A stretch of 58,498 nucleotides of DNA from positions 1 through 58,498 of the forward strand of contig JANWYQ010000006.1 in assembly GCA_025055015.1 (NCBI GenBank). Direction: 5' to 3'. The DNA comes from Caldilineales bacterium (GTDB lineage Bacteria; Chloroflexota; Anaerolineae; JAAEKA01). This document shows, piece by piece, positions 12,485 through 54,711 of the stretch. The first letter of the stretch is position 1. Each line of letters opens with the position of its first letter. The notes below the pieces were generated by a model, which worked only from the letters and a program-made list of their open reading frames with translations, did not search any database and was not told where the DNA came from. Position numbers and translations under genes: made by a program.

Positions 12485-12575
12485 AGCAGGAGGACAGGAG
12501 CGCTGAGGACGGCTCTCATCTCCGGGCGTTCGGCAGGTGGGGCGTGGGACCGGAGCCGCCGCGCCCGGCTGCGGG

Positions 12576-33900: not shown

Positions 33901-36423
33901 ATGCGACGAGAGCGCCGAACCCATCAGGGATGGCTACCAACGGCCGTCCGGTGGACCGCGGCGGCGGTGTTGGCGCTGACCCTGCTCCCCGGCGGGGCGG
34001 CCAACGCTGCGCCGGCCACGACAATGCCGGCCGAGCCGCGCGTCGCTAACGTGGGCTGTCCCTTTGTGGTGGTGCCCTTCTGTCTGAAGCTGATCGTGGC
34101 CGAGGACGGGTTGGTGCGGGTTACAACTGCCGACCTCCAGGGAGCGGGATGGAACGTGCAGACGGTGGACCCGCGCTCCTTCAGCCTGAGCAGCCAGGGC
34201 CGCGCCGTTGCCCTGCGGCTGCAGGACGGCGGCGACGGCCGCTTGGACCCCGGCGATTTCGTGGAGTTCTACGGCCAGCGCTTCCGCGGGACGCAGATGG
34301 ATGAGAAGTACACCGACGACAACGTGTACTGGCTGGCGGCCGGCGGCTCGGCCGGCCCGCGCATGGCCGTGGTGGATGCGACGCCGGGGTCTGCGCCGGA
34401 TGCGCCTGCCAGCTTCTGGACCACCCACCACGCCGAGGAGAACCACCACTGGTTCACCCACAACGTGCTGGGGTGGCCCACGCAGGACACGTGGTGGTGG
34501 ACCAACATGTACGTCTCCGGCCCGCGCTCGGTAACCCCCTGGCAACTGCCCACGGTGCTGCCGGCCCCTGCCTCGGAGGTGTACACCGCGACCCTGCAGA
34601 TCGAGGTGGCCCCGCGGCGCCAGTACGGCGCGCATCGCTTCCAGGTCTTCCTCAACGACGCCGCCGGCCAGCCCCTGCTGGACGACACCTTCTTCGGCCA
34701 TGTCCCGCGCGTGGCCCAGGTGGACTTCCCCGGCAGCCTGCTGCGCAACGGCGAGAACGTCGTCCTGATCCACATCTTCAATCAGCCCTCCGGCAAGACG
34801 GTCGCAGAGGCCGGCGCTGCGGCGGCGATGCGCCCCCCGTGGGTGGACGAGGCGCTGAACGCGCTGCAGGGCGGGCCACCTGAGAAGGCTGCCGACGGCA
34901 CCTTCGAGTGGATGTATGCGAACTACTACACGGTGCGCTACCGCCGGCTCTACCGGGCTGTGAACGACGAGATCGTGTTCTCGGCCGACCAGCCGGGGAC
35001 ACAGATCTTCACGCTGCACGGCTTCACCGACCGCAACGTGCGCGTCTACGACATCACCAACCCCCTGCGGCCGGCGCGGCTCGGCGGGGTCCAGGTGACC
35101 CCAGCCGGCGACGGCACCTTCCGGGCGCGCCTACAGGTGACGGCGGAGGCCGACAGCCGGTATCTGGCCCTCACCGAGGCCAAAGCCAAGCGGCCAAAGC
35201 GGGTTGAGGCGCCGCTGGCCTCTGCCGTTCGCTCTCCCAACAACGGCGCCGACTGGATCATCATCACCCACGCTGACTTCCTGCCTCAGGCTCGGCGGCT
35301 GGCGGCCTATCGGGCGGCCCAGGATGGCTTCCGCACGGCGGTGGTCAACGTGGCCGAGCTGTACGAGCAGTTCAACCACGGCATCTTCCACCCCGAGGCT
35401 ATCCGCCGCTTCGTCGCCTTCGCCGTGCAGGCGTGGCAGCCGCCGGCGCCGCAGTACATCGTGCTCCTGGGCGACGGCAACTGGAACTTCAAGGGCTACG
35501 GCACGGCCACCTATGGCCAGCCCGATCCCAACTGGATCCCGCCCTATCTGGTATGGGAGGACCCGTGGCAAGGAGAGGTACCCAGCGACAACGCTTTCGT
35601 CAACCTGGACGACGACCCCCTGCCCGAGCTAGCCATCGGCCGTCTACCGGCCCGCTCCCTGGCTGAAGCTACCACCTTGGTGGACAAGATCATTGCCTAC
35701 GAGGCCCAGCGGCGCAGCGCGACCCCCTGGCGCCAGCGCATGTTCTACGTCACCGACAACAGCGACAGCTCCGGCGACTATCCCTCCGTGGCCGAGAACG
35801 TCATTCGCACGGCGCTGCCGCCGTATGTCGAGCCCGTGCGCAACTACCTGGGGGTCACCTTCCCCATAGATCAGGTCGCACGGGCCACCGACTTCTTGGT
35901 GGACCAGGTGAACGCCGGCGTTTCTGTGCTGACCTACATGGGTCACGGCTCGGTCAACTGGTGGGCCGTCGAGGGCCTGTGGAACACCAGCTACACCTCG
36001 CGGCTGAGCAACGCCGATCGCCTGCCGCTGGTGGTCACCTTGAACTGCTTGGACGGCTACTTCGTCCACGGCAACCCCGGCCTGCAGTCCGTGGCCGAAG
36101 AGATGTTGCGCCATCCCGGCGGCGGTTCCGTGGCGGCCTGGTCGCCCACCGGCCTAGGCACGACGTACATCGAAAACATCCTGAACATGGGGCTGTTGGA
36201 AGCCTTTTTTCAGCTAGACATTCGACGGATCGGCCCGGCCACCATGCATGCCAAGGCTCATCTCTACAACATCATCGGCGACAGCACGCCGTACGAGACG
36301 GCGCTGCTGCACACCATGACCGTCTTCGGCGACCCTGCGCTCAGGCTCAGCCTGCCCACATGGCGGGTGCGGTTGCCGGTGGCCATGAGGGGCGTCACCC
36401 CACCGAAGGCGACGCAGCCCTAG
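33901..36423 (+). CDS. Secreted peptidase family C25 (gingipain-like clan CD cysteine peptidase) multidomain protein
   Basis: Signal peptide. C-terminal half has DWIIITHADFLPQARRLAAYR, YIVLLGDGNW, catalytic His in LTYMGHGSVNWW and Cys in VVTLNCLDGYF about 35 aa later (C25 His/Cys dyad spacing). Confidence 0.75.
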   Translation: MRRERRTHQGWLPTAVRWTAAAVLALTLLPGGAANAAPATTMPAEPRVANVGCPFVVVPFCLKLIVAEDGLVRVTTADLQGAGWNVQTVDPRSFSLSSQGRAVALRLQDGGDGRLDPGDFVEFYGQRFRGTQMDEKYTDDNVYWLAAGGSAGPRMAVVDATPGSAPDAPASFWTTHHAEENHHWFTHNVLGWPTQDTWWWTNMYVSGPRSVTPWQLPTVLPAPASEVYTATLQIEVAPRRQYGAHRFQVFLNDAAGQPLLDDTFFGHVPRVAQVDFPGSLLRNGENVVLIHIFNQPSGKTVAEAGAAAAMRPPWVDEALNALQGGPPEKAADGTFEWMYANYYTVRYRRLYRAVNDEIVFSADQPGTQIFTLHGFTDRNVRVYDITNPLRPARLGGVQVTPAGDGTFRARLQVTAEADSRYLALTEAKAKRPKRVEAPLASAVRSPNNGADWIIITHADFLPQARRLAAYRAAQDGFRTAVVNVAELYEQFNHGIFHPEAIRRFVAFAVQAWQPPAPQYIVLLGDGNWNFKGYGTATYGQPDPNWIPPYLVWEDPWQGEVPSDNAFVNLDDDPLPELAIGRLPARSLAEATTLVDKIIAYEAQRRSATPWRQRMFYVTDNSDSSGDYPSVAENVIRTALPPYVEPVRNYLGVTFPIDQVARATDFLVDQVNAGVSVLTYMGHGSVNWWAVEGLWNTSYTSRLSNADRLPLVVTLNCLDGYFVHGNPGLQSVAEEMLRHPGGGSVAAWSPTGLGTTYIENILNMGLLEAFFQLDIRRIGPATMHAKAHLYNIIGDSTPYETALLHTMTVFGDPALRLSLPTWRVRLPVAMRGVTPPKATQP

Positions 36424-36500: not shown

Positions 36501-37631
36501 ATGTCCTTTGTCTTTGTTCCCTCTCGACGCTTGCGATCCCTGAGCGCCGTGGTGGCTGCTTTTTGGCTGGCGGCCGCTGTGGCCATGCCAGCCTTCGCCG
36601 CAACCCAGCCGCCCAACGCCATCACGCTGCTCTACTTCCGCGCCACGCCGCGGCCTGACAGCGTGTATCTCAAGTGGGAGACCGGGGCAGAGGTTGACCA
36701 CGGCGGCTTCCTTCTCTATCGCAGCACCGTGCGCCAGGACCCCAACCGCGGCGTCCGCCTGGCCGACTTCCCCCCGCGCGGGGACGTGGGCGGCGCCGTG
36801 TACGAGTACACCGACACCAGCGTCACCCCAGGCACAACCTACTACTACAGCTTGGTGGCTGTGGACGTGCGCGGCAACGAGGTGACCTACTTCACCGATC
36901 CGCCGGGCGTGACGCCGGGGCAGCCCACCGCCACGCCCACCCCCACCGCCACGCCTGTCCCGACGGCCACGCCCACAGCTACGGCAGTCCCGGCCACGCC
37001 AACGCCGCTGCCCACGGCCACGCCCGTGCCGACGACGGCGGCCGGCGCCTCCGGCAGCGAGGGCCAGGCTCCCACGGCCACGCCTGTGGCGCCGCCGACG
37101 CCCACCAGCCCGGCCCCGGCCGTGCCGCCGCCTCCCGCGCCGACCCCTGTTCCTCCGCCCCCTGCGGCCGGCGTTACCCCTGCGCCGACGCAGCCCGTCG
37201 TCGTTCAGCCCCCTGCGCCTCCCGCAGCCGACACGCCGCCCAGCGCGCCGGCCGCCCCTGCACCCGCGGTGGAGACGCCCACTGAACCTCCGGCGGTGGA
37301 CACCCCTGAGCCGACGCCTGTGGTGCCGCCGGAGAGCGCTTCTCCTTCGCCGCCCGACGCTGCCCCGGCTCAACCGGTCGCTCCTCCTGCCGAGCAGCCC
37401 GGCCAGCCCCAAGCGCTGACCCAGGCCCCCACGCCCACGCCGGCCGCAGTAGCCCAGGTGCCGGCTCGCCAGCCGCGCGCGACCCCACGGCCCGGCGAGG
37501 GCAGCTCGAGCGCGGGTGGGGCGCGCGCCCTGGTGGCGGTGGTGGCGGCCGTGGCCCTGGGGGCGGCTGCCCTGTTGATCGCGCTGATCGTCGTCCTTTG
37601 GCTGCGCACACGGGGCGCTCAGGAGCCATGA
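36501..37631 (+). CDS. Secreted FN3-like domain protein with about 200-aa Pro/Thr/Ala-rich linker and C-terminal hydrophobic anchor
   Basis: Signal peptide. FN3-like fold (LKWETGAEVDHGGFLLYRS...TYYYSLVAVDVRGNEVTYF). PT-rich low-complexity linker. C-terminal ALVAVVAAVALGAAALLIALIVVLWLRTRGAQEP (TM plus basic tail). Confidence 0.7.
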   Translation: MSFVFVPSRRLRSLSAVVAAFWLAAAVAMPAFAATQPPNAITLLYFRATPRPDSVYLKWETGAEVDHGGFLLYRSTVRQDPNRGVRLADFPPRGDVGGAVYEYTDTSVTPGTTYYYSLVAVDVRGNEVTYFTDPPGVTPGQPTATPTPTATPVPTATPTATAVPATPTPLPTATPVPTTAAGASGSEGQAPTATPVAPPTPTSPAPAVPPPPAPTPVPPPPAAGVTPAPTQPVVVQPPAPPAADTPPSAPAAPAPAVETPTEPPAVDTPEPTPVVPPESASPSPPDAAPAQPVAPPAEQPGQPQALTQAPTPTPAAVAQVPARQPRATPRPGEGSSSAGGARALVAVVAAVALGAAALLIALIVVLWLRTRGAQEP

Positions 37632-39850
37632 CCCGGTCCGCTCGCCTCCTGTGGGGGTTGGTCGCGGCGACGGCCGGGCTGGCTGCCCTGATGTTTTTCG
37701 TTCTGCGCCAGCCTCCCAGCGGCGCAACGCAGGCGCCTGAGGCCGCTCTGCCTCTGAAGGTGGTCACGGAGCAAGCCGGGCTGACGGCCATCACGGCCGA
37801 GGACCTGCGGCGAGCCGGCCTGGACCCCGACCAGGTGCCGCCGGAGCAGTGGCAGCTACGCCGCGAGGATCGGGTGGTGCCGCTGTTGCCCCTGGGGCAA
37901 GGCAGGGGCCTGCGGTTGGTGTTCTACGCAACGCCTAGCGACAACCTCTACAGCCCGCAGCAGGTGTACTGGCTCGAGGCGGCGCCCGAGGGAGGAGCGC
38001 GGCCGGAGGTTCGCCCGCTGGACCTGGAGCCGGCCGCGGCTCAGGCCGTGATCACCGGCACGCTGTGGGTGGACTGGCAGCGTCAGTACAACTCCCGGCT
38101 ACCCGAAGACCCCGAGGACGTTCGCCCGCCCCATGCGGCCCGCCCGCTGCCCAACCGCTGGGTTGGGGACGCGCTCTTCGGCGGCCGCGAGCTCAGCCTG
38201 CCCTTCTCGGCGCCCGATCTGGCGCCGGGGCCGGCCCAGCTGCATTTGCGCCTGTGGGCCAACACGGCCTCGCCCGCCTTCAACCCCGACCATCGGGTCA
38301 AGGTGCTGCTCAACGGCCAGGAGGTGGCTGAGGGCGTCCACGACGGCCAGGGCTTCTGGTCCATCGTGGCCGACGTGCCTGCCGGCCTGCTGCAGCCGGG
38401 GGAGAACACCTTGCTGCTGCGCGCGCCGGGGGACACCGGCGCCCGCGTGGAGCAGGACAACCCGGCCTGGATGAAGCTCACCTATCCCCGCGCGCTGACC
38501 GCACAGAACGGCAGCCTCGAGCTGGACTATCGCGGCGGCGGAGTCGCGGTGGCGGGCCTTCCGCCGCGCGAGACGGTGCTGGTGTGGGACGTGACGGAGC
38601 CCGACCGGCCGCTGCACCTGGCCTCCGAGGAGCCGCTGCGGAGCGACGCCCGCGGCCGCTTGGCTTTTGCCTATCCGGCGGAGGCCGGGGGAGAGCAGCG
38701 CCTGGCGGTGGCAGCGGTGTCGGCGCTGTTGCGACCGGCGCTGATCGCCGCCCCACAGCCGGAGAGCCTGGCGAGCCTGCCGGGCGCGGACTACCTGCTG
38801 ATCGGTCCCACCGACCTGCTGGCGGCCGCGCAGCCCCTGCTGGAGCGACGCCAGGCCCAAGGGCTGACGCCGCTGGCCGTCAACGTGGAGGCCGTCTACG
38901 AGCAGTTCGGCGCGGGCCGCCGCGGGCCGGAGGCGATCCGCGCCTTCCTGCGCCATGCGGTGGAGACTTGGGCGCTTCCCCCGCGCTTTGTGGTGCTGGT
39001 CGGCGACGCCAGCTACGATCCCAGGGGCTACACCGGCGAGGCAGCGCGCACTGCAGACCGCGTGCCGACCTGCCTGGTGGACACCTACTTCGTGGGGGAG
39101 ACGGCCAGCGACCACTGCTACGCCGACCTGGACGACGACCTGGCGCCGGAGCTGGCCGTGGGCCGCCTGCCGGCGCGCTCGGCCGACCAAGTGCAGGCCT
39201 TCGCAGCCAAGCTCGTCGCCTACGAGCAGACGCCCGCCGACGCCGACTGGCTGCGTCGCGCCTTACTGGTGGCCGACAAGGAGGCGGAGTTCCTGAATGC
39301 CTCCCAACGCATTGCCGAGGAGGCCTTGCAGCCGGCCGGCTACCAGACCCAGCTGCTGGACCTAGCCGACCCGGCCTACGCCCAGCCGGCCGACGCGCGC
39401 CAGACGCTGCTGGCCGCGCTGGACGCCGGCGTTGGCCTGATCAACTACTCCGGCCACGGCAGCCCGCGCTGGTGGGCCAGTGAGCTGCTGAGCAGCGAGG
39501 ACGCCCTCGGCCTGCGCAACCGCGAGCGCCTTCCCCTCGTCACGGCCATGACTTGCCTCACGGGCTACTTCCACCACCCCACCACCCTCTCCCTGTCGGA
39601 GGCGCTGTTGTGGGCGGAAGGGGGCGCCGCGGCCGCCTTCATGCCCTCCAGCGAGGGGGTGACGGTGGAGCAGCTGCCGGTGGCCCTCAGCTTTTACCAG
39701 CACCTGTTGAGCGGCCGGTACACTACCCTGGGGGAGGCCATCCGAGACACCAAGCGCGACCTGGTGCAGGCCAACGCCACCAACGCCGACATGATCCACA
39801 CCTTCAACCTGCTGGGGGATCCGGCCATGCGGCTGCCCTTTGTGCCGTGA
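37628..39850 (+). CDS. Peptidase family C25 (gingipain-like) multidomain protein, paralog of 33901..36423
   Basis: AGGAG SD, ATG overlapping the upstream stop. N-terminal TM/signal. DYLLIGPTDLL, FVVLVGDASYDP, INYSGHGSPRWW (His) and VTAMTCLTGYF (Cys). Shares a VYWL(A/E)A N-domain motif with the first C25 protein. Confidence 0.75.
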   Translation: MTRSARLLWGLVAATAGLAALMFFVLRQPPSGATQAPEAALPLKVVTEQAGLTAITAEDLRRAGLDPDQVPPEQWQLRREDRVVPLLPLGQGRGLRLVFYATPSDNLYSPQQVYWLEAAPEGGARPEVRPLDLEPAAAQAVITGTLWVDWQRQYNSRLPEDPEDVRPPHAARPLPNRWVGDALFGGRELSLPFSAPDLAPGPAQLHLRLWANTASPAFNPDHRVKVLLNGQEVAEGVHDGQGFWSIVADVPAGLLQPGENTLLLRAPGDTGARVEQDNPAWMKLTYPRALTAQNGSLELDYRGGGVAVAGLPPRETVLVWDVTEPDRPLHLASEEPLRSDARGRLAFAYPAEAGGEQRLAVAAVSALLRPALIAAPQPESLASLPGADYLLIGPTDLLAAAQPLLERRQAQGLTPLAVNVEAVYEQFGAGRRGPEAIRAFLRHAVETWALPPRFVVLVGDASYDPRGYTGEAARTADRVPTCLVDTYFVGETASDHCYADLDDDLAPELAVGRLPARSADQVQAFAAKLVAYEQTPADADWLRRALLVADKEAEFLNASQRIAEEALQPAGYQTQLLDLADPAYAQPADARQTLLAALDAGVGLINYSGHGSPRWWASELLSSEDALGLRNRERLPLVTAMTCLTGYFHHPTTLSLSEALLWAEGGAAAAFMPSSEGVTVEQLPVALSFYQHLLSGRYTTLGEAIRDTKRDLVQANATNADMIHTFNLLGDPAMRLPFVP

Positions 39851-39940: not shown

Positions 39941-41614
39941 ATGGAGCTGCGAGAATACGTAAACCTGCTGCGCAAGTGGCTGTGGTTGATCCTGGTAACG
40001 ACGGTTTCGGCAGCCATCATCGCTTTCTTCGTCAGCCGTGGCCAGACGCCCATCTACCAGGCCACGGCTACCGTGTTGATCAACCAAGCGCGGTCGCCCG
40101 TTCGGGGCACGGAGTACGCCGACATCCTCACCAGCGAGCGGGTGGCCCGCACCTACGCGGAGCTGCTCAAGGGGTGGCCTGTGCTGGAGGAAGCCGTGCG
40201 CAAGATGGGCTTCACCCAGGAGTTTCGTGAGCTGCAAAAGGCCTACCAGCTCAGCGTCAGCATCACCCCCATCCGCGACACGCAGCTGATCAACCTCCAG
40301 GTGCAGGCCAACGACCCAGCCTTGGCGGCCGAGCTGGCCAACACCCTCCCCGAGGTGTTCAAGGGGGTCAACCAGGCACGGCAGCGGGAGCGCTTCGAGA
40401 CCACCCGCAAGGAGCTGCAGGCGGAGCTGGCTGCGGTGGAGAAGGATATCGTCGCCACCCAGGAGGCGATCGCCCAGCTTTCCGAGTCGCAGTCGGCCGA
40501 GGACAAGGCGCAGGTGAGCCGCCTGCAGAGCGCGCTCAGGCGCTACGAGGCCACCTACAACTCCCTGCTGAACAGCCTGGCCGAGCTGCGGCTCACCGAG
40601 GCGCAGGCCACCGACAACGTGGTCCTGGCCACCCCTGCCCAGCCGCCCAAGAACCCGGTGCGGCCGCGCGTGCTGTTCAACACGCTGTTGGCGGCCATCG
40701 TCGGCGCCATGTTGGCGGTGGGCGTGGCGTTTTTGATCGAGTACCTGGACGACACCGTCAAGACCCCCGACGACGTGCGGGCCGTCAGCGGCCTGCCCAC
40801 CTTGGCCGCTGTGGTGGAGCTTGAGGCGGACACGCCGCAACAGCGCCTGGTGGCTTTGACTGCCCCGCGCTCGCCTGAGGCGGAAGCGTATCGGGTGTTG
40901 CGCACCAACCTGCAGTTCTCGTCGCTGGACAAACCGCTGCGCGCTCTGATGGTCACCAGCGCCGGGCCCGGCGAAGGGAAGAGCACCACGGCCACGAACC
41001 TGGCGGTGGTGTTTGCCCAGGCCGGCTCGCGCGTGCTGCTGGTGGACGCCGACCTGCGCCGGCCCAGCATCCACAGGCTGCTCCAGGTGCCCAACAACAC
41101 GGGTCTCACCACGGCTCTGCTGCAGGTGGGCAACCGGCCGGAGGACTTCGTGCAGGCCACGGCCCAGCAGAACCTCTCGGCCTTGACCACGGGCCCCATC
41201 CCCCCGAACCCGGCCGAGCTGTTGGGTTCGGCCCGCATGCACGACCTGCTCACCCATCTGAAAGAGCGCTACGACCTCGTGGTGGTGGACAGCCCGCCGG
41301 TGTTGGCCGTGGCCGACGCCACCATCCTCTCCAACCAGGCGGACGGGGTGTTGATGGTGGTCAGTGCAGGCGAGACCCGGTTCGAGATGCTGGCGCAGGC
41401 TCTGGAGCGCCTCACGGGCGTGGGGTCCCGGCCGTTGGGCGTGGTGCTGAACAAGCTGACGCCGGACAGCGGCGGCTCGTACTACTACTACTACTACGCC
41501 AGCCAATACCACAGCGGCGATGGGGCCGACGGCGGCGCTGCTCCGCCCTCGGCCGGCAACGGGAAGCTGCGCCGGCTGCGCTCGCCCAAGCCCAGCGGTC
41601 AGGCTACCACCTAG
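39941..41614 (+). CDS. Polysaccharide co-polymerase/tyrosine autokinase (Wzz + CapB/Wzc-like BY-kinase)
   Basis: Wzz-like N-terminus with TM. Walker A VTSAGPGEGKSTTATNLAVVFA. C-terminal tyrosine cluster YYYYYYASQY. Confidence 0.85.
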   Translation: MELREYVNLLRKWLWLILVTTVSAAIIAFFVSRGQTPIYQATATVLINQARSPVRGTEYADILTSERVARTYAELLKGWPVLEEAVRKMGFTQEFRELQKAYQLSVSITPIRDTQLINLQVQANDPALAAELANTLPEVFKGVNQARQRERFETTRKELQAELAAVEKDIVATQEAIAQLSESQSAEDKAQVSRLQSALRRYEATYNSLLNSLAELRLTEAQATDNVVLATPAQPPKNPVRPRVLFNTLLAAIVGAMLAVGVAFLIEYLDDTVKTPDDVRAVSGLPTLAAVVELEADTPQQRLVALTAPRSPEAEAYRVLRTNLQFSSLDKPLRALMVTSAGPGEGKSTTATNLAVVFAQAGSRVLLVDADLRRPSIHRLLQVPNNTGLTTALLQVGNRPEDFVQATAQQNLSALTTGPIPPNPAELLGSARMHDLLTHLKERYDLVVVDSPPVLAVADATILSNQADGVLMVVSAGETRFEMLAQALERLTGVGSRPLGVVLNKLTPDSGGSYYYYYYASQYHSGDGADGGAAPPSAGNGKLRRLRSPKPSGQATT

Positions 41615-41635: not shown

Positions 41636-42913
41636 ATGCTGCGCTCCCTTGGACTTTGGCTAGAGCGGCTGCGGCCCCTGTGGGTTGGAGCCGCTCTGCT
41701 GACTCTGGTGGCGGCCGAGGCGCGCTACGCTCCGGTAGGCATGGCCGCGTTGGCCGTGCTGTGGGCGTGGTCCGGCGTGAGCACTGGGCGATGGCTGGGC
41801 CTCTCGCCCTTGGCCCTTCCCTGGCTGATCTGGCTGGCCATGGTGCCGGTGACGCTGTGGGCGACGGCAGCGCCGGAGCTCACCCGGGAGGCGCTGGCCG
41901 CCCTGGCCGCCCAGGGGATCGCTTTTTGGGCCATGAGCACGTGGACGCGCAACGACCAGCGGATGCAGTGGGCGTGGGGCGGGTTGATGCTGGCTGCCCT
42001 GGCTCTCAGCGGCCTCTCCCTCTTCTGGCTGGAGTGGAGCGGACGGCTCTTCGCCGTGCCTGCTGCCATCCGCAGCTTGGCCGGTGGGCCGGGGCCGCTC
42101 CAGGGCGAGGTAGTGAACAAGAACGTGATGGCCGGCGTGTTGGTGGGGCTGTGGCCGCTGGCCCTGGCGTGGGCGGCGACGCCATGGGAGCGCGGACGGC
42201 TGGGGCGACAGGCGGCCGGGGCGGCGGTGGCAGCCGCCGTGCTGGCGGTGCTGGTGCTTTCCCAGTCGCGCGGGGCTTGGCTGGCGGCGGCGGGCAGCCT
42301 CTTCCTGTTGGCAGCTATGCGCTGGCCCCGGCTCTGGTGGGCGGCGCCCATCGCCCTGGCCGCCGGCCTGGCGCTGTTGGTGCGCGGCGGCGTCGCAGCG
42401 GTGATGCAGAGCGACGCGCTGGGGGGCCTGGACGGCCGGCTGGAGCTCTGGTCCCGAGCCCTCTACGCATTGCAGGACTTCGCCTTCACCGGCATCGGCA
42501 TGGGAGCCTTTCGCCGGGTGATCCCCCTTCTTTACCCCTACTTTGTCTTCGAGCCGACGGCCGACATCAACCACGCCCACAACCTGTGGCTACAGGTCGG
42601 CGTGGACCTGGGGATGCCGGGGCTGGTCGCCTTTCTCAGCATGGGTTTGGCTACGGCGGCGCTGCTGTGGCACGCCTTGGCCCGTGGCCCGGCGGGGGTC
42701 CAGCCGCGGCGGTGGTTTTTGCGCGGGGCGGTGGCCGGCCTGACCGCTGCGCTGATCCACGGCATCCTGGACGTGGTGACGTGGAACACGCGGCCGGCCT
42801 TTCTGGTGTGGGCCGTGTGGGGCGCGGCGGTGGGCATGGCCGCGTGGACGGTGGAACAACAGGCCGTCGCCGGGCTGAGCGACCGCTCGGCGTCAGCAGC
42901 ACAGGAGGCGTAA
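41636..42913 (+). CDS. O-antigen ligase/Wzy_C-family polysaccharide polymerase-ligase membrane protein
   Basis: 10-12 TM. Central periplasmic loop region with AWLAAAGSLFLLAAM...Y...FTGIGMGAF typical of O-antigen ligase family. Confidence 0.7.
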   Translation: MLRSLGLWLERLRPLWVGAALLTLVAAEARYAPVGMAALAVLWAWSGVSTGRWLGLSPLALPWLIWLAMVPVTLWATAAPELTREALAALAAQGIAFWAMSTWTRNDQRMQWAWGGLMLAALALSGLSLFWLEWSGRLFAVPAAIRSLAGGPGPLQGEVVNKNVMAGVLVGLWPLALAWAATPWERGRLGRQAAGAAVAAAVLAVLVLSQSRGAWLAAAGSLFLLAAMRWPRLWWAAPIALAAGLALLVRGGVAAVMQSDALGGLDGRLELWSRALYALQDFAFTGIGMGAFRRVIPLLYPYFVFEPTADINHAHNLWLQVGVDLGMPGLVAFLSMGLATAALLWHALARGPAGVQPRRWFLRGAVAGLTAALIHGILDVVTWNTRPAFLVWAVWGAAVGMAAWTVEQQAVAGLSDRSASAAQEA

Positions 42914-47491: not shown

Positions 47492-47520
47492 ATTATAGCG
47501 CAAGCAAATTGAGAAGTCAA
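47492..47520 (-). promoter_or_regulatory. Consensus sigma70 promoter for hppA: TTGACT-17-TATAAT, giving an about 245-nt leader
   Basis: Reverse complement of 47492-47520 reads TTGACTtctcaatttgcttgcgcTATAAT. It is back-to-back with the corA promoter. Confidence 0.55.
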
Positions 47521-47535
47521 ACACAAAGAGCGCAA

Positions 47536-47564
47536 TTGACACACGGTCAGAAAGCAAGCATAAT
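47536..47564 (+). promoter_or_regulatory. Sigma70 promoter for corA (second paralog): TTGACA-17-CATAAT
   Basis: TTGACAcacggtcagaaagcaagCATAAT, 35 nt upstream of the ATG at 47599. Confidence 0.55.
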
Positions 47565-47598
47565 ACGACCAGCGAAGTCCTGCCCCTGCGAGCGAGCC

Positions 47599-48516
47599 AT
47601 GAGCATCACCGCGATCACCCATCAGCGTCTCACGTGGGTCAACATCGTCAACCCCACTCAGGAGGACGTGGCCTATCTGCGCAAGCACTACAACTTCCAC
47701 CCTCTGGACCTGGAGGACGTGTTGAGCCAGAACGAGCGTCCCAAGATAGACGAGTACGACGACTACCTGTTCATCGTGATGCATTTCCCGGTCTTCGACC
47801 CGCAGCGGCAGCTCACGCGCTCCTGTGAGGTGGACTTCTTCATCGGCGCCGGCTATCTGATCACCATTCACGACGGCCAGCTCAAGCCGCTGAACCGGCT
47901 GTTCGAGGCCTGTCACGACGACGGGGTGGCGCGGGCGAAGCACATGGGCCGCGGGGCCGGCCGCCTGCTGTACTCCATCCTCGACAGCATGGTGGACTAC
48001 AACTTCGCCATCCTGCGCAAGGTGGACGCCAAGATCAAGGCCATCGAGGAGAACATGTTCACCGAGGACATGCGCACCATTGTGCAGAGCATCTCCTTGA
48101 TCCGCCGCGACATCATCGCCCTGCGCCGGGTGGTGAAGCCGCAGATCGCCATCGTCAGCAACCTGGAGCGCAAGGACCGCCCCTTTATCCAGGAGGAGCT
48201 GGACGTCTACTTCGGCGACATCGTGGACGGCTTCTCGCGGGCCTGGGACATCCTGGAGGACTACCGGGAGGTGATCGAGGGCCTCAGCGCCACGTCCGAC
48301 TCGGTGACCTCCTACCGCATCAACGACGTGATCCGGGTGTTGACGGTGATCTCCGTGATCATGCTGCCGCTGACGGTGATCACGGGGGTGTACGGCATGA
48401 ACCTGGAGTGGCTGCCGGCGGCCGACACGATCTACGGCTTCTTCATCGTCGTGGGCTTCATGGTGCTGGTGGCAGGGGGAATGCTGTTGTACTTCCGGCT
48501 GCGGGGGTTTATCTGA
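47599..48516 (+). CDS. corA: CorA-family Mg2+/Co2+ transporter (second paralog)
   Basis: YGMNLEWLPAADTIYGFFIVVGFMVLVAGGMLLYF with GMN motif. Start at MSITAITHQRLTWVNI. A consensus promoter lies 28 nt upstream. Confidence 0.85.
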   Translation: MSITAITHQRLTWVNIVNPTQEDVAYLRKHYNFHPLDLEDVLSQNERPKIDEYDDYLFIVMHFPVFDPQRQLTRSCEVDFFIGAGYLITIHDGQLKPLNRLFEACHDDGVARAKHMGRGAGRLLYSILDSMVDYNFAILRKVDAKIKAIEENMFTEDMRTIVQSISLIRRDIIALRRVVKPQIAIVSNLERKDRPFIQEELDVYFGDIVDGFSRAWDILEDYREVIEGLSATSDSVTSYRINDVIRVLTVISVIMLPLTVITGVYGMNLEWLPAADTIYGFFIVVGFMVLVAGGMLLYFRLRGFI

Positions 48517-49827: not shown

Positions 49828-52800
49828 CTAGGGGGTCACGGTGATCGTGGCCTGCCGCGCGTCTTTGACATCGTTGCCCTGCGCAACGACGACCAGCGTC
49901 TGCGCGCCGGCTGCTAAGCCGCGCAGCCGTAGGGGCACCAGGGCCACCTCGTTGGCCGGCACGGTGATGCGGTCGGCCGCCAGCTGCGCAGCGATTCCCG
50001 GCGAGGTCTGCCCGGTCAGCGACACCGCCAGGGGCTGCGCGCTGTAGTTGAAGATCTGAACCCCGACGATGGTTTCCTGGCCCACGGCCAGCTGAGAGGT
50101 CGGCAGGTCCAGGCCCAGGAAGAAGGGCTGGAACACCCGCAGGGGCGCCACCGCGCTGCCCAGCCGGCCGCTGCGGTCCACGGCCAGCGCCGTGATGCGC
50201 CAGGTGGTGATGGCGTCCCCCGTGGGGAGGCTCAGCTGCAGGCGGCCGTCCGGACCGGTGATGGCCTGGGGGTTCCAGTAGAGGGTCTGCGGGAAGCGTT
50301 CCCGCACGATGGGCAGCTGCGCCAGCGCATCGGGATCGGCGGGCTCAGGCGAGCGACGCCCAAGGCCAAAGGCCTCCAGGCCGATGACCGGCGCCGGCAG
50401 GGCCGGCTCGACGGCGGCCGCCGGCGCGGGCGGCGTTGGGAGCGGCGTGGCGGTCGGCTGCGGCGTGGGGAGGGACGTGGCCGTCGGCTCGAGGGTCGGC
50501 GCAGGAACGGCCGTGGGGGACGGCGTCTCGCCGGCGGCCGCGTGCGCCAGGGCGCGCTCCGGTGTCGGCTCGGCGGTGGCCTCCGGCTCGGCCGTCTCGG
50601 TGGGCGTCGGGGTTTCCGCCTCCACCGGCAGCGTCGGCGTGATCTCGGCCGCCGCCGTAACGGTGACCCCAGGGGCGGCCGCCATGGCTAGGGTGTCGGT
50701 GACCACGGCCAGCGCCTGGACCTCGGCGGTTTCCTCGACGGCGGCTGCAGCAACGGTCGCCTCAGCCTCCGGCTGGGCGGGCGCCATCACGGCCTCGACC
50801 GGGGCTCCCGGCGTCTCCTCGCCGGCGACCCTCGCCTCCTCTGCGGGCGGCGCAGCCGCCTGGGGGGCCATCTCGGGCGCCTCCTGCGCCGTGCTCTCGG
50901 CCGCCTGCTCGGCGACCATCGGGCTGACGCCGCCGGGGCGCAACGGCGCGGCGCAGCCGGCCAGCAGGCTCCCAGGCAGGCCGCCGGCCACGGGCGCCGT
51001 GACCTGCTCCATCAGGCGACCGCCGGCGCCGCCGACAACGGGCAGCGACAGCGCTAGCAGGACCAGCAGCAGCGCTATTGCCAGCGCCATGGCGCCAACA
51101 GACCGTCGGCCTTCCAGGCGCAGGCCCCAGCCCAACAGCAGCCAGCTGACTACGGCGGCCCCAAAGGCGATCCCCAGAGCCGCCACCCAGGCCGAGGACA
51201 GCTCGCCGCCCTGCCCGGCGGCGTAGGCCAGCAGCCCCAACCCCACGCCGAAGGCCAGGGTCAGCAGCACGGCGTACTGCGCGCGGCCGTCCCCGCGGCG
51301 CCAGGCGTAAGCGCCCAGCGCCGCCAAGGCCAGCAGCCAGAGGCCGCCGCTGACGACCAGCGCCGCCCAGGCTGCCGCCCCCGACAGCCTGCCGAGAAGA
51401 GCGGCCAACCCCGCTCCTACGACGCTGAGGACCAGCAGCGTAGCCAGGCTGCGGGCGGCGGCCCGGCCCAAGAGGCCCTCGCGGCGCAGGCCGGCCAGCA
51501 CGACCAGGCTCAGGGCTGCGGCTGCGGCGATGGACGCCAGGCCAAGGCCGAGGCTAAGGCGGCTAAAGGCTGCCACCCGGGCGCGGTTCACCTGGGACGG
51601 CGTCTCCGTGTCAACCGCCTGCACGGCCAGGGTGTAGGGCTGGCCGGTGTAAGCTGCCCAACTGGCGCGGGCGATCTGCTGCTGCGCCTGCTCGAGGCTG
51701 GACGCGGCCGCCACACCCGCCTCGCGCAGCGCCTCGTCCAACAGGAAGTAGGCGCGCGCGAAGCCGGGCTGGTAGTCCCGCTGGGCAAAGGTCGCCTCGT
51801 TGACCACCGCCAGGCCCAGGGCAGCCTCCACCGGCCGGCCGTCGGCCGCCGATTGCACCTGCGCCGAGAGGATGGCCTCCTCGCCGGGGCGGTACTCGGG
51901 TCGGTCGGTGGCCAGCTCTACCCGCAGCGCCTCCGGCGCATCCACGACGATGACCCGGCTGTCCCGCAGCGCGCGGCTGTCGCTGCCCACCGCGTAGGCG
52001 TTGAGCTCCAGGGTGCCCGCCAGCTCTGGCGTGAGGTCCAGGGCGAAGGTGGCCTTGCCGTCCTGCACCGGGGCCGACTGGGTGAGCACCAGCTGGCCGG
52101 CCTTGATCACGTCCAGGAAGACGGCGCTGGCCGGGCCGGCCGACAGCGCCTCGACGGCTGCAGTGTCGCCCACGGCGTAGATCGCCCGGTCGGTGCGCAG
52201 GAGGAGCACCTCGCGCGCCCGGTCCAGCGGCAGGGTCAGCTCAGCGCGGGCCTCGCGGCCGGCAGCGTCGGCGGCGGTGATGCGCAGGGTGCGGGCGCCG
52301 ACGTCGCCCTGCCGCGGGGTGTAGCGCACCTCGGCGATGCCGGCGGCAGAGGTGACCACGGGCATGGGGGCGGCGTCGCCGATCTGCACCTGCAGCGTGG
52401 CCGCAGTGGGCTGGCCGTCGGGATAGCTGGTGAGGATGAAGAGCAGGTTCTCGACCCCGCTGCGCAGGGTGCCGCCCTCCGGCACGGCGGCGATGAGGAT
52501 GGGCTGGCGGGCCAGGGCCAGCTTCTGCCAGCCGAACTCGCTCTGGCCGAGGCTGTCCACCACCGTCGCCTCTAGGTCCAGGGCCAGGGTGGTCTCCGGC
52601 TCGCCGGGCTGCCGGGCGGCAAAGAACGCAGCCGGCAGCTCGGGCAGCTCTACCCGGAAGGAGAAGCGCCCCGCGGCGTCGGTGCGGCCTGTGACCTCCC
52701 GGCGGACGACCACCGGGTCGGCGGCATCGGCGGCCTCGCGCGGGCGGCTCACCAGCACCCGCAGGGTGACGGCGGCGTCGGCCACCGGCCGGCCGAAGAA

Positions 52801-53877
52801 GTAGGCAGCGTCCACCGTGCCCGCCACAGCCTGGCCGGACAGGTAGAAGGGCTGGTCGGCCCGCACGTCCACGCGGAACGCCGGCAGGTCGGCCTGGCTC
52901 ACTTGCACCGTGCGCTCGGAGACGGTGTCGCCCAGGACGGCCCGCAGCCGGTAGGCGCCCTCCGGGGCGTCGGCGGCCAGCGCAAGGTCCACGGCCGCAA
53001 TGCCGAAGTCGGAGGCTCGCACCTCCTGGCCGAGCAGGGCGGCTCCCTGGGGATCGAAGGCCTCGAAGCGGACGAGCGCATCGGCCGCCGGCCGTTGGTC
53101 TACGGCGCCCAGGGCCAGGGTGCGCAGGTGCACCGTCTCGCCGGGCCGGTAGACCGGGCGGTCGCTGCTGAGCAGGAGGCGGTAGGTGCGGGCCAGGCGG
53201 ATCGGCGCGGTCACCTCGGCGGCACCCAGGTCGCTGTCGGCCTCCACCACCAGCTCAGCGTCCCCCTGCCACTCCTCTGGCACGCGGAACTGCACAGGGA
53301 GGGAGCCAGTGGCGTCGGTGTTGCCGGCGAAGACCGTTCGGGCCAGGCCGGCCTGGCGCAGGCTGACATCTACCCGGGCGTTGGCGAGGGGTTGGCCGCT
53401 GGCGTTGTCGCGCACGGCCACGCGCACGGCCGCGGTGGACCCCGGCGTGAAGGTGCTCTGGCCCAGCACCAGCAGCTCCTGGGCGCCGGCCTGGTAGGGC
53501 AGCCGGGACGCGTTGAGGGTGAGCACCACGAAGAAGAGGGCCATGGCGGGGATGGCGGCCTGGGTCAGCGGACGGAGGAGGCTGCGCAGGCCGAGCTGGA
53601 GGGCCTGCCACCAGCCCGGCTGCGGGCCGCGCGACGCCTGGCGCGCGCGCTCGGCAGCCAGCGCGCTGCGGATGCGCTGTTCCGCTGCGGGCGCCAGCCG
53701 CGTGGTTGCGTAAGCGGCCGCTATCGTGCGCGTCAGGCCGGCCTGCAAGCTTTGCAGCTCGTCCAGAGCGGCGCGGCAGGCCGCACAGCGGGCCAGATGC
53801 GCCTCGACGGACTGCACCTCCGCCGGGCTCAGCTCACCGTCCAGGTAAGCCAGCAGGTGTTCTTCGACGTGGGCCAT
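49828..53877 (-). CDS. Anti-sigma factor (zf-HC2) fused to an alpha-2-macroglobulin-like MG-domain extracytoplasmic protein with internal 6-TM block and Pro/Thr/Glu-rich linker
   Basis: N-terminus MAHVEEHLLAYLDGELSPAEVQSVEAHLARCAACRAAL (HxxxCxxC anti-sigma zinc finger), then TM. Repeated MG-type domains with YRPGETVHLR / EYRPGEEAILSA. Six hydrophobic helices. Acidic PT-rich linker. C-terminal domain with FPQTLYWNP (the A2M FPEtwlW motif). No CGEQ thioester motif was seen. Confidence 0.7.
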   Translation of the reverse strand: MAHVEEHLLAYLDGELSPAEVQSVEAHLARCAACRAALDELQSLQAGLTRTIAAAYATTRLAPAAEQRIRSALAAERARQASRGPQPGWWQALQLGLRSLLRPLTQAAIPAMALFFVVLTLNASRLPYQAGAQELLVLGQSTFTPGSTAAVRVAVRDNASGQPLANARVDVSLRQAGLARTVFAGNTDATGSLPVQFRVPEEWQGDAELVVEADSDLGAAEVTAPIRLARTYRLLLSSDRPVYRPGETVHLRTLALGAVDQRPAADALVRFEAFDPQGAALLGQEVRASDFGIAAVDLALAADAPEGAYRLRAVLGDTVSERTVQVSQADLPAFRVDVRADQPFYLSGQAVAGTVDAAYFFGRPVADAAVTLRVLVSRPREAADAADPVVVRREVTGRTDAAGRFSFRVELPELPAAFFAARQPGEPETTLALDLEATVVDSLGQSEFGWQKLALARQPILIAAVPEGGTLRSGVENLLFILTSYPDGQPTAATLQVQIGDAAPMPVVTSAAGIAEVRYTPRQGDVGARTLRITAADAAGREARAELTLPLDRAREVLLLRTDRAIYAVGDTAAVEALSAGPASAVFLDVIKAGQLVLTQSAPVQDGKATFALDLTPELAGTLELNAYAVGSDSRALRDSRVIVVDAPEALRVELATDRPEYRPGEEAILSAQVQSAADGRPVEAALGLAVVNEATFAQRDYQPGFARAYFLLDEALREAGVAAASSLEQAQQQIARASWAAYTGQPYTLAVQAVDTETPSQVNRARVAAFSRLSLGLGLASIAAAAALSLVVLAGLRREGLLGRAAARSLATLLVLSVVGAGLAALLGRLSGAAAWAALVVSGGLWLLALAALGAYAWRRGDGRAQYAVLLTLAFGVGLGLLAYAAGQGGELSSAWVAALGIAFGAAVVSWLLLGWGLRLEGRRSVGAMALAIALLLVLLALSLPVVGGAGGRLMEQVTAPVAGGLPGSLLAGCAAPLRPGGVSPMVAEQAAESTAQEAPEMAPQAAAPPAEEARVAGEETPGAPVEAVMAPAQPEAEATVAAAAVEETAEVQALAVVTDTLAMAAAPGVTVTAAAEITPTLPVEAETPTPTETAEPEATAEPTPERALAHAAAGETPSPTAVPAPTLEPTATSLPTPQPTATPLPTPPAPAAAVEPALPAPVIGLEAFGLGRRSPEPADPDALAQLPIVRERFPQTLYWNPQAITGPDGRLQLSLPTGDAITTWRITALAVDRSGRLGSAVAPLRVFQPFFLGLDLPTSQLAVGQETIVGVQIFNYSAQPLAVSLTGQTSPGIAAQLAADRITVPANEVALVPLRLRGLAAGAQTLVVVAQGNDVKDARQATITVTP

Positions 53878-53925
53878 GTAGCACGTGAATGGAGGGCGCC
53901 GGACGGTCCATGTCCACCCTTGCGG

Positions 53926-54609
53926 TCAGCTCGCCAAGAGCAGCAGGAGCAGCGTGGGCAAGGAGCGGGCAGGGGCCAGATCGGGCGCTTCCGCCAAAAG
54001 GATCTCCTTGAGCTTCTTGTGGGCGTTGAAGAGGCGCGACTTGACGGTGCCAACGCTGATGTTGAGGGCCTCCGCGATCTCCTCGTAGGAGAGCTCGTGG
54101 CCGTAGCGCAGCAGCACCACCTCGCGGTGGACGTCGCCCAGCCGGTTCACCGCGCGCCAGAGCCGGGCTCGCTCCTCCCCGCGCAGCGCCAGCGTCTCGG
54201 GGTCGGCGTCCACCTGGCCGGTGAGGGCTCCGTCCGACGCCTCGCCCTCCACCTCCAGCCGCTCCAGCTTCTCCTCCATCTCGTCCCAGTCCGCGGAGGG
54301 GAGGGTCTTGCGGCGGAGGCGGGTCTTGCAGCGGTTGACGGTGACGCGGTAGAGCCAGGTCTCGAAGCGGGCGGCGCCCTCGACGTCGTAGCGCTGGAGG
54401 CCGCGCATGACGTCAATGAAGGCCTCCTGGGTGGCTTCCTCGGCGGCGTCGCTGTTGCGCAGGGTCATGAAGGCGATGCGGTACACGTAGTCCTTGTAGC
54501 GCTCGAACAGCGCGTCGAACGCGGCCGACTGGCCGGCTTGATAGCGCCGGATCAACTCGTCGGTGGAGAGGCCGACGGGCTTAGGCTTGCTGCGGGCTGC
54601 GGCTACGTC
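53926..54609 (-). CDS. ECF-subfamily RNA polymerase sigma-70 factor
   Basis: Region 2 (LIRRYQAGQSAAFDALFERYKDYVYRIAF...EATQEAFIDVMRGLQRYD) and region 4 (LSYEEIAEALNISVGTVKSRL). Start set to GTG at 54609. The track ORF extends to 54780, but the extra 57 codons are Pro-rich translation of a CT-rich leader that contains a promoter. Confidence 0.8.
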   Translation of the reverse strand, partial: DVAAARSKPKPVGLSTDELIRRYQAGQSAAFDALFERYKDYVYRIAFMTLRNSDAAEEATQEAFIDVMRGLQRYDVEGAARFETWLYRVTVNRCKTRLRRKTLPSADWDEMEEKLERLEVEGEASDGALTGQVDADPETLALRGEERARLWRAVNRLGDVHREVVLLRYGHELSYEEIAEALNISVGTVKSRLFNAHKKLKEILLAEAPDLAPARSLPTLLLLLLAS

Positions 54610-54682
54610 CGAGGGCACCGGTGCGTACCTCTGTGCCTGGCGATTACATGCGAAAGGAGGGGGATTTGTTCGCGCCGGTGCA

Positions 54683-54711
54683 AGTGTAGCGTTTTGGGAG
54701 GAGGGTGTCAA
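54683..54711 (-). promoter_or_regulatory. Sigma70-type promoter for the ECF sigma/anti-sigma operon: TTGACA-17-TACACT
   Basis: Reverse complement reads TTGACAccctcctcccaaaacgcTACACT, about 70 nt upstream of the GTG at 54609. It is preceded by a polypyrimidine (CT-rich) tract at 54712-54780. Confidence 0.4.

Follow-up and report, generated by a model that had tools for sequence, protein, structure and literature searches.

An extracytoplasmic function sigma factor locus of a Caldilineales bacterium with a predicted anti-sigma factor built on an alpha-2-macroglobulin-like core

Introduction

Pairs of extracytoplasmic function (ECF) sigma factors and anti-sigma factors are among the main transmembrane signalling systems of bacteria, and the input is known for a minority of groups only. 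The anti-sigma factors RsiW and RseA are cleared by regulated intramembrane proteolysis. In the RsiV/SigV system, the ectodomain of the anti-sigma factor is itself the receptor for the hostile enzyme, lysozyme, to which it binds directly, and resistance is induced by the sigma factor. The present study concerns a two-gene locus on a 58,498-nucleotide contig of a Caldilineales bacterium (Chloroflexota; contig JANWYQ010000006.1), the whole of which is called the window hereafter. The locus consists of an ECF sigma gene followed by a gene for a 1349-aa protein, in which an anti-sigma domain is joined to an ectodomain resembling alpha-2-macroglobulin (A2M).

In its general plan the locus resembles RsiW/SigW, RseA/SigE and RslA/SigL. 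In all of them a cytoplasmic HxxxCxxC anti-sigma domain is connected to an ectodomain by a single transmembrane (TM) segment, and the gene lies directly downstream of that for the ECF sigma factor under an ECF-type, presumably autoregulated promoter. Unlike RsiW, RseA and RslA, the window protein has a predicted ectodomain of about 1200 aa with an A2M/C3-type MG1-MG7 core, which re-enters the membrane by six further helices; in the literature searched, such an ectodomain is reported for no other anti-sigma factor.

Bacterial A2Ms of type II lack the CxEQ thioester motif yet have a bait region, and they are encoded in the mag operon (PMC5764988). MagD, one product of this six-gene operon, is soluble and periplasmic, and MagB keeps it at the membrane. 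Although it has no thioester, it acts by cleavage of its bait, on the inner membrane and with membrane partners (PMC5764988). No mag operon was found here, and the present locus has no mag-like neighbours.

Results

The sigma and anti-sigma genes are adjacent and co-oriented

The two genes of the module are as follows.

53926..54618, minus strand: ECF (group 4) sigma gene, 230 aa from GTG 54618; the maximal open reading frame (ORF) reaches 54780
49828..53877, minus strand: anti-sigma/A2M-like ORF, 1349 aa

The upstream ORF had been taken for an ECF sigma factor, and profile searches bear this out. It matched Sigma70_r2 (62.2 bits), Sigma70_r4_2 (56.5 bits) and Sigma70_ECF of Pfam, and TIGR02937 of NCBIfam (117.6 bits vs a cutoff of 42.9). 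Regions 2 and 4 only were detected, region 3 giving no match in the profile search. No NCBIfam equivalog cutoff was reached by the sigma protein, and hence no named ECF subgroup can be given. The original prediction placed the sigma start at 54711. This position falls on the -35 hexamer of a sigma-70-like promoter (see later section), and GTG 54618 is preferred: it aligns with 'MPSDVA' of the closest sigma homologues and is preceded, 9 nt upstream, by an AGAGG Shine-Dalgarno sequence. GTG 54618 is most likely the start of the 230-aa protein.

The gap between the sigma and anti-sigma genes is 48 nt and ends at the anti-sigma ATG. No terminator-like site was found in this gap by sequence scan, in keeping with the earlier claim that the two co-oriented genes are co-transcribed. 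The neighbours of the anti-sigma gene in the window are the genes for the sigma factor and a glycosyltransferase, and an RNase D-like gene.

The NCBI entry with the identical protein is named 'MG2 domain-containing protein [Caldilineales bacterium]'; database names of such proteins are automatic. The G+C content at third codon positions (GC3) of the ORF is 0.91, as in adjoining genes. In the homologue search, P0002 (L and P numbers denote loci and proteins) was collinear with the 1349-aa protein at 68% identity over 100% coverage, and more than 100 homologues were collinear at full length. Since the ORF is uninterrupted and its homologues are collinear throughout, a frameshift or an artefact joining two genes is excluded, and the reading of the 1349 aa as one protein stands. 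The order of its domains is zf-HC2, TM1, MG1-MG5, the first half of MG6 (MG6a), two helices, six TM helices, a tether, the second half of MG6 (MG6b), MG7 and stop. This architecture, together with the sigma/anti-sigma assignment of the two-gene module, is close to certain.

The predicted parts of the protein, from N- to C-terminus, are listed with the evidence used.

53578..53877, minus strand: class I anti-sigma domain, cytoplasmic, with ZAS motif (residues 1-100); Pfam zf-HC2
53506..53568, minus strand: TM1 (residues 104-124); hydropathy, and found in nearly all family members
51796..53481, minus strand: extracytoplasmic MG1-MG5 and N-terminal half of MG6 (residues 133-694); Pfam, AlphaFold2, Foldseek
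51661..51762, minus strand: two helices after MG6a (residues 706-739), start of the bait-equivalent insert; AlphaFold2 secondary structure
50983..51606, minus strand: six-helix membrane block (residues 758-965) at the bait site
50950..50967, minus strand: lipobox-like LLAG-C975-A at the membrane-proximal start of the tether; conserved Cys
50305..50952, minus strand: disordered acidic P/T/A/E-rich tether, bait-equivalent (residues 976-1191); pLDDT and composition
49831..50304, minus strand: C-terminal half of MG6 and MG7 (residues 1192-1349); Pfam A2M, alignment, AlphaFold2

The 1349-aa protein joins a ZAS anti-sigma domain to an A2M-type core

At the N-terminus a canonical zf-HC2 anti-sigma domain had been proposed. 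The Pfam profile (PF13490) matched residues 3-35 with 41.5 bits vs a cutoff of 22.2 (E 1.4e-10) and the HxxxCxxC motif is intact, which upholds the assignment. The ZAS motif H27-x3-C31-x2-C34 is kept in at least 90% of family members. The NCBIfam RsrA, ChrR and anti-sigma-E models matched the anti-sigma head below their cutoffs, RsrA being the best partial match; the RsrA/ChrR match is far under its cutoff (25.5 vs 62.5 bits). All PDB sequences were then compared with a profile made from 33 family members, and here the head matched M. tuberculosis RslA (3hug_B, 1.7e-4) and DdvA (8rlz_A). By profile, zinc-binding motif and gene arrangement the pair is assigned to the class I (ZAS) anti-sigma/ECF sigma systems.

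The same profile search placed the ectodomain. Its best matches were human A2M (8e-46), A2ML1, CD109, C3, C4, C5 and insect TEP1, and E. coli ECAM/YfhM was much weaker than human A2M (4e-17 vs 8e-46). As an observation in its own right, this profile of Chloroflexota proteins reaches the metazoan A2M, A2ML1, CD109 and C3-C5 at about 1e-45 to 1e-39 and ECAM at 4e-17. Pfam matches to the window protein itself were MG2 in two stretches, the better at residues 234-314 (84.5 bits vs 32.8, E 6.9e-24), MG3 at residues 331-413 (23.3 bits vs 23.1, E 8.1e-05), A2M_BRD at residues 560-697 (51.1 bits vs 22.7, E 2.3e-13) and A2M at residues 1198-1287 (59.1 bits vs 21, E 4e-16). YRPGE occurs at residues 243 and 662, and FPQTLYW at 1195; thus every motif named earlier, including the zf-HC2 H/C motif, is present. 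No Pfam match to the thioester domain (TED), CUB or receptor-binding domain was obtained in the 1349-aa protein, and a motif scan found C-x-E-Q nowhere in its sequence. Both searches agree with the original prediction that thioester, CUB and TED are missing.

AlphaFold2 modelling of residues 150-1349, with an alignment of 106 sequences, gave a mean pLDDT of 80.9 and a pTM of 0.65. Residues 150-694 form a confident beta-sandwich array (pLDDT mostly >90) and residues 1198-1348 two confident beta domains. In a Foldseek search of the PDB with this model, the best 50 matches were all members of the thioester-protein family. CD109 came first (6.5e-28), followed by C5, A2ML1, C3, ECAM (5a42, 5.1e-25), SaA2M (4u48, 2.1e-22) and TEP1. 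The MG domains are thus of A2M type, as had been claimed from the letters, by profile against solved structures and by fold. Generic Ig or CARDB domains, considered in place of MG, are ruled out by the structure-profile and Foldseek matches. By its MG core, on sequence profile and modelled fold, the 1349-aa protein is a member of the A2M/TEP superfamily.

A membrane block and a tether replace the bait region inside MG6

An insertion had been noticed between the MG array and one last domain. The insertion is present; its place is different. The C-terminal block opens with R-x-FPQTLYW and stops exactly at the MG7 boundary. Its alignment with human A2M begins at 'VRKYFPETWIW', and in C3 it covers residues 10-184 of the alpha' chain. 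It is established for the structures of this family that the chain returns to MG6 at this point, having passed through the bait region (A2M) or the anaphylatoxin (ANA) domain (C3). Because the C-terminal block aligns from the residue right after the bait/ANA insertion, the insertion lies inside MG6, and the C-terminal region is MG6b plus MG7. By alignment and model, the six-TM block and the tether sit at the bait/anaphylatoxin insertion site and replace the bait.

Hydropathy indicated one TM helix at about 104-124 and six at about 775-950, and AlphaFold2 placed six long helices at 758-965. Lysines and arginines number three each in the TM2-3, TM4-5 and TM6-7 loops; the other two loops have none. 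Since these counts fit the positive-inside rule, the anti-sigma domain is predicted inside and both MG parts outside. The 7-TM (1+6) topology with both MG regions outside, put forward in the original prediction, is therefore favoured by hydropathy, model and charge distribution alike.

The membrane block matched no Pfam family. A separate AlphaFold2 model of residues 700-985 (pLDDT 84.2, pTM 0.73) gave no Foldseek match in the PDB, the best E being 0.54. Stand-alone homologues of the block were not found: phmmer with residues 760-975 against 1.84 billion representatives returned 15 proteins, all of them long A2M-like proteins or fragments. The block shows no conserved catalytic-type residues; W859, G928 and the basic cytoplasmic loop are invariant. 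Conservation of the block peculiar to the anti-sigma-fused members, which would have hinted at coupling to the cytoplasmic domain, was considered and rejected, as the W859/D863 loop is also present in sigma-less forms (a weak comparison, with a full-length group of n=2).

The tether, of about 215 aa, has an AlphaFold2 pLDDT below 50 over residues 973-1194. Residues 985-1200 contain A 25%, P 18%, E 13% and T 12% with a net charge of -25; over 976-1191, P+T+S+A+E amount to 70% and the net charge is -24. Across the family the tether is hypervariable in length (45-332 aa). In the tether-coding region a 30-bp unit is present twice at 50430-50489 (86% match), encoding the repeat PTAT(S/P)LPTP(Q/P). 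Such a repeat fits a tether whose length evolves rapidly.

L-A-G-C975 follows about 25 residues after TM7, where the tether begins, with charged residues between. C975 is nearly invariant in anti-sigma-fused members (consensus GWL[TA]GC[AGS][AP]) and missing from the sigma-less members. Internal lipidation or cleavage may occur at C975, giving a C3-like two-chain molecule; the residue may instead be an intermolecular disulfide/dimerisation cysteine or lie at an interface. A standard signal peptidase II site is disfavoured because the hydrophobic region is not contiguous with the motif.

The window protein is a truncated form within a large family of A2Ms

A word-indexed protein search gave 233 relatives, and 113 of the best 120 carry zf-HC2, MG2, A2M_BRD and A2M together. 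Essentially all of the relatives show the 1+6 TM pattern. At source they go under names such as 'anti-sigma factor RsiW', 'zf-HC2 domain-containing protein' and 'alpha-2-macroglobulin family protein'. Scanning one genome per species gave at least 530 loci, most of them in Anaerolineae, Caldilineales, Ardenticatenales and Thermoflexus, and some in Planctomycetota, Acidobacteriota and WOR-3. ORF calling and phmmer on 84 loci distinguished the following classes.

Class i, about 22 loci: anti-sigma head with sigma directly upstream, six TM, no TED (the window type)
Class ii, L003 and L011, proteins P0043-P0053: head and sigma as in class i, with fused TED and receptor domain and 'MPSGCFEQTSSA'
Class iii, 18 loci: sigma-less, full-length, about 1615-1720 aa, six TM, CFEQ
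Class iv, 15-18 loci: sigma-less; split between an MG-6TM-MG7 gene and a TED and receptor gene of about 470 aa that lies 19-52 nt further on
Split loci of class iv type: L004, L018, L020, L024, L027, L028, L031-L035, L038, L039, L042, L044, L056, L080
Class v, Acidobacteriota and others: without TM insertion

The first gene of class iv encodes about 1140-1190 aa, and the second starts just past the CxEQ site (TED profile position 47 in L028); CxEQ is found in neither gene of the split A2Ms. An ECF sigma gene is upstream and co-oriented in 26/26 anti-sigma-fused Chloroflexota loci, with a gap of -46 to 244 nt in 24/26, and none of the Chloroflexota-type loci without the N-terminal extension (the sigma-less classes) has an upstream ECF sigma gene.

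A neighbour-joining tree of the MG1-MG6a core (74 sequences), tentative as it is without bootstrap, placed the Chloroflexota anti-sigma forms in one clade nested among sigma-less six-TM A2Ms. The TED-bearing anti-sigma forms, which keep an intact GCFEQ thioester, are sister to all TED-less ones. Window residue 1349 aligns with residue 1166 of P0053, which continues into TED (1213-1498) and A2M_recep (1613-1700). Because of the TED-bearing sisters in the tree and the alignment of its C-terminus inside P0053, the window protein is, by sequence comparison, a derived, putatively sensor-only truncation, ending at MG7, of a thioester-containing sigma-linked A2M.

These relationships also dispose of the reading as a decaying, non-functional A2M gene or an assembly fusion of two genes, which is effectively refuted: the C-terminal 550 aa of full-length relatives are indeed missing, but the truncation stops exactly at a domain boundary, no fewer than 22 loci and over 100 protein clusters at 40-70% identity share the TED-less architecture, GC3 is that of the neighbours and the ORF is uninterrupted and collinear with its homologues.

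Planctomycetota, too, have ZAS-fused A2Ms with TED and CFEQ, and in some of the Planctomycetota fusions (L075, L079 and L082) just two TM helices are inserted at the bait site. TED and CFEQ are fused in L075 and L079; L082 has its TED part on separate ORFs downstream. In the distance tree these three form a separate clade, and the Planctomycetota fusion may be independent or ancient. Two further loci, L081 and L068, have sigma-linked full-length six-TM A2Ms with an N-terminus that is not ZAS, and in both the sigma gene overlaps the A2M start. The head of L081 is helical and anti-sigma-like and lacks HxxxCxxC; in L068 several additional TM helices are found at the N-terminus.

A conserved promoter motif precedes the sigma gene and some genes of related genomes

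Two promoter candidates were found upstream of the sigma gene.

54642..54673, minus strand: ECF-type promoter candidate GCGAACAAATCCCCCTCCTTTCGCATGTAATC (-35 GAAC, -10 GCATGTAA); conserved two-block motif
54683..54711, minus strand: sigma-70-like promoter candidate TTGACA-17-TACACT; consensus scan

The motif GAAC[ACT]WWW-N-(C/T)GCATGTAA, with its spacing written GAAC-N16-GCATGTAA, is upstream of sigma at a similar distance in 24/26 related sigma-linked loci. A position weight matrix (PWM) was derived from these sites, and of 2.04 million positions scanned with it just 30 exceed 20 bits. The window site reaches 30.0 bits, and no other PWM match was found within the 58-kb window. It is presumed to be the autoregulatory promoter of the sigma operon. 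The consensus scan gave one sigma-70-like site vs 0.1 expected in shuffles, directly upstream of the ECF-type promoter. The adjoining sites suggest dual promoters, basal and induced.

PWM matches were also located directly upstream of two sigma-less split A2M genes, at L028:5796-5827 and L004:5923-5954 (GAAC..GCATGTAA / GCGTGTAA). L028 shares its metagenome-assembled genome (MAG) with the sensor locus L013, and L004, which encodes P0114, shares one with the sensor P0094. The motif at these A2M genes, with a sigma-linked putative sensor copy in the same genomes, suggests a sensor/effector circuit. Further matches lie downstream of the anti-sigma gene, before lipoprotein genes (L014:9659, L021:9555, L025:10945 and L012:11184). 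In L014, L021 and L025 the lipoprotein is DUF4349 with a C-terminal TM (L021 by Pfam, L014 and L025 by similarity), and in L012 it is vWF_A/VWA. These DUF4349 and VWA lipoprotein genes are candidate members of the regulon.

Upstream of some other sigma-less A2M genes (L031, L033, L058), a classical ECF-type motif, GGAAC-N17-CGTCTAA, was observed. A different ECF sigma factor may control these genes.

Other genes in the window

Elsewhere in the window there are two gingipain-family (Peptidase_C25) genes at 33901-36423 and 37598-39850, both on the plus strand and each matching at about 1.5e-84. They adjoin a Wzz/tyrosine-kinase-like gene (39941-41614) and an O-antigen-ligase-like gene (41636-42913). 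An HtrA-like Trypsin_2+PDZ protease gene is present at 17924-19135 (plus strand). Two CorA-type Mg2+ transporter paralogues lie in the contig, at 11402-12610 (minus strand) and 47509-48516 (plus strand).

Discussion

Protease or damage sensing as a possible function of the module

The leading explanation, which we hold to be about as likely as not, is that the two-gene ECF module is a protease or envelope-damage sensor that releases an autoregulated sigma factor. In such a scheme the anti-sigma domain would hold the sigma factor at the membrane. Extracellular proteases or comparable envelope damage would cut or destabilise the exposed tether or the MG ectodomain, and the anti-sigma remnant would then be cleared, regulated intramembrane proteolysis being the most plausible route. 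Once free, the sigma factor would transcribe its own operon and envelope-defence genes, which in related genomes would include a sigma-less, TED-bearing A2M paralogue (at least two genomes). The window-type protein would thus be the sensor copy of a sensor/effector pair.

That protease or damage is the input is put forward tentatively. The protease logic is supported by the sister forms, in which the same kind of anti-sigma head appears on a complete A2M with TED, receptor domain and 'MPSGCFEQTSSA'. The tether is predicted to be disordered and is hypervariable in length, like bait regions, which also counts for it. MagD, too, is an example of an A2M that has lost the thioester and yet depends on bait cleavage (PMC5764988).

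Several points weigh against this scheme. A classical spring-loaded conformational change of A2M is not expected, because there is no TED or thioester. P/T-rich acidic linkers can be glycosylated and protease-resistant, and so not bait-like. The tether is far in sequence from TM1 and the anti-sigma domain, and its coupling to sigma release is putative. In the 58-kb window no site-2 protease, TED gene or second A2M was found. Promoter enrichment over 50 sigma-less loci is weak: only 3/50 exceed the background 99th percentile, two of them convincingly, and a general enrichment of the sigma promoter before sigma-less A2M genes was rejected on this count. In a third MAG with both copies (L017 and L056) no promoter motif was found. 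The relatives all come from metagenome-assembled genomes.

A bolder version would make the A2M core a bacterial protease-activated receptor, and we regard it as improbable and speculative. The six-helix bundle, perhaps packed against TM1, would relay a cut in the tether to the anti-sigma domain, either by conformational change or by exposure of TM1 to a site-2 protease. The freed sigma factor would induce effector A2Ms. Through C975 the molecule may in addition be lipid-anchored and consist of two chains, comparable with the beta and alpha chains of C3. If true, this would amount to a sensing arm, ancestral in style, of a complement/A2M-like defence system in prokaryotes, present in hundreds of species of Chloroflexota and Planctomycetota.

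Alternative explanations

The alternative that survives best, though unlikely, is a generic envelope-stress or ligand-binding anti-sigma factor. Here the MG array would be a scaffold or binding module (e.g. for cell wall or polysaccharide) that gates site-1/site-2 proteolysis as in RsiW/RseA, and proteases would not be the specific signal. The loss of TED, thioester and receptor domain, and with them of the protease-trapping machinery, speaks for such a role, as does the great diversity of extracytoplasmic domains carried by ECF anti-sigma factors. The candidate regulon genes in relatives are envelope lipoproteins (DUF4349, vWA) and not A2Ms alone, and a glycosyltransferase gene flanks the window locus. 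A generic role would leave aside, however, that the position of the insertion at the bait site and the hypervariable disordered tether are both conserved, that sister forms fuse an intact thioester domain to the same anti-sigma head, and that the promoter motif of the sigma factor precedes two effector-type A2M genes.

It is very improbable that the signal is cytoplasmic, the HxxxCxxC motif of the ZAS domain sensing thiol oxidation as in RsrA/RslA and the A2M-like ectodomain being merely fused and independent. An intact ZAS motif, RsrA as the best partial NCBIfam match and the match of the family profile to RslA (3hug_B), which one study reportedly found to be redox-sensitive, point in this direction. 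But most ZAS domains bind zinc structurally without redox sensing, and the RsrA/ChrR model matches fall far below their cutoffs. The head is, moreover, strictly co-inherited with a 1200-aa ectodomain over many species, which argues for the ectodomain as the input.

Significance

For an ECF group of Chloroflexota and Planctomycetota, the protease- or damage-sensor proposal offers the hypothesis that the sensor is a homologue of animal protease-trap and complement proteins. If the promoter link between sensor and effector is general, it would amount to a simple inducible anti-protease immune circuit in bacteria. The membrane-threaded bait occurs in thioester-bearing, split and truncated versions. 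This architecture bears on how monoderm-like bacteria retain a surface A2M and on the evolution of the A2M/C3 scaffold, and the closeness of the family profile to metazoan A2Ms is relevant to the debate on whether A2M passed from animals to bacteria or the other way.

Comparison with known systems

If the ectodomain of the window protein does serve to recognise a hostile enzyme outside the cell, RsiV/SigV is alike in concept. The fold of RsiV is unrelated, its ligand is another and it lacks a multi-pass insertion, and the analogy is functional only.

Type I A2Ms (ECAM/YfhM, SaA2M) share with the window protein the MG array, the fold and membrane anchoring on the extracytoplasmic face. Unlike them, the window protein is without CxEQ, TED, CUB, MG10, an N-terminal lipoprotein signal and a PBP1c (pbpC) neighbour. 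Its bait is replaced by six TM helices and a tether, and its sequence is nearer to metazoan A2M, CD109 and C3. The type II protein MagD of P. aeruginosa likewise has no thioester motif (PMC5764988). Unlike MagD, the window protein is itself predicted to be 7-TM, stops short after MG7 and has an anti-sigma domain joined to it.

C3, C4, C5 and CD109 have the same MG1-MG7 core with a large insertion interrupting MG6 at the same point. In C3 the insertion is the ANA domain and a processing site; in the window protein it is the six TM helices and the tether. The motif FP[EQ]T(L/W)(Y/L)W marks the re-entry into MG6 in C3-type proteins and in the window protein, and CD109, the best fold match, is membrane-tethered. 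The window protein differs from C3, C4, C5 and CD109 in being prokaryotic, in having no TED and no known convertase-like processing, and in having a membrane bundle, not a soluble domain, as its insertion.

In the literature searched, no published link between anti-sigma factors and A2M, and no membrane-threaded bait region, was found. The paper on ECF reclassification, in its main text, and the paper on anti-sigma coevolution make no mention of A2M or MG2. Thus, a putative A2M-like sensor domain for ECF signalling and a membrane-threaded A2M architecture, both widespread and known only from metagenomes, are apparently undescribed and are what this locus adds to the known systems.

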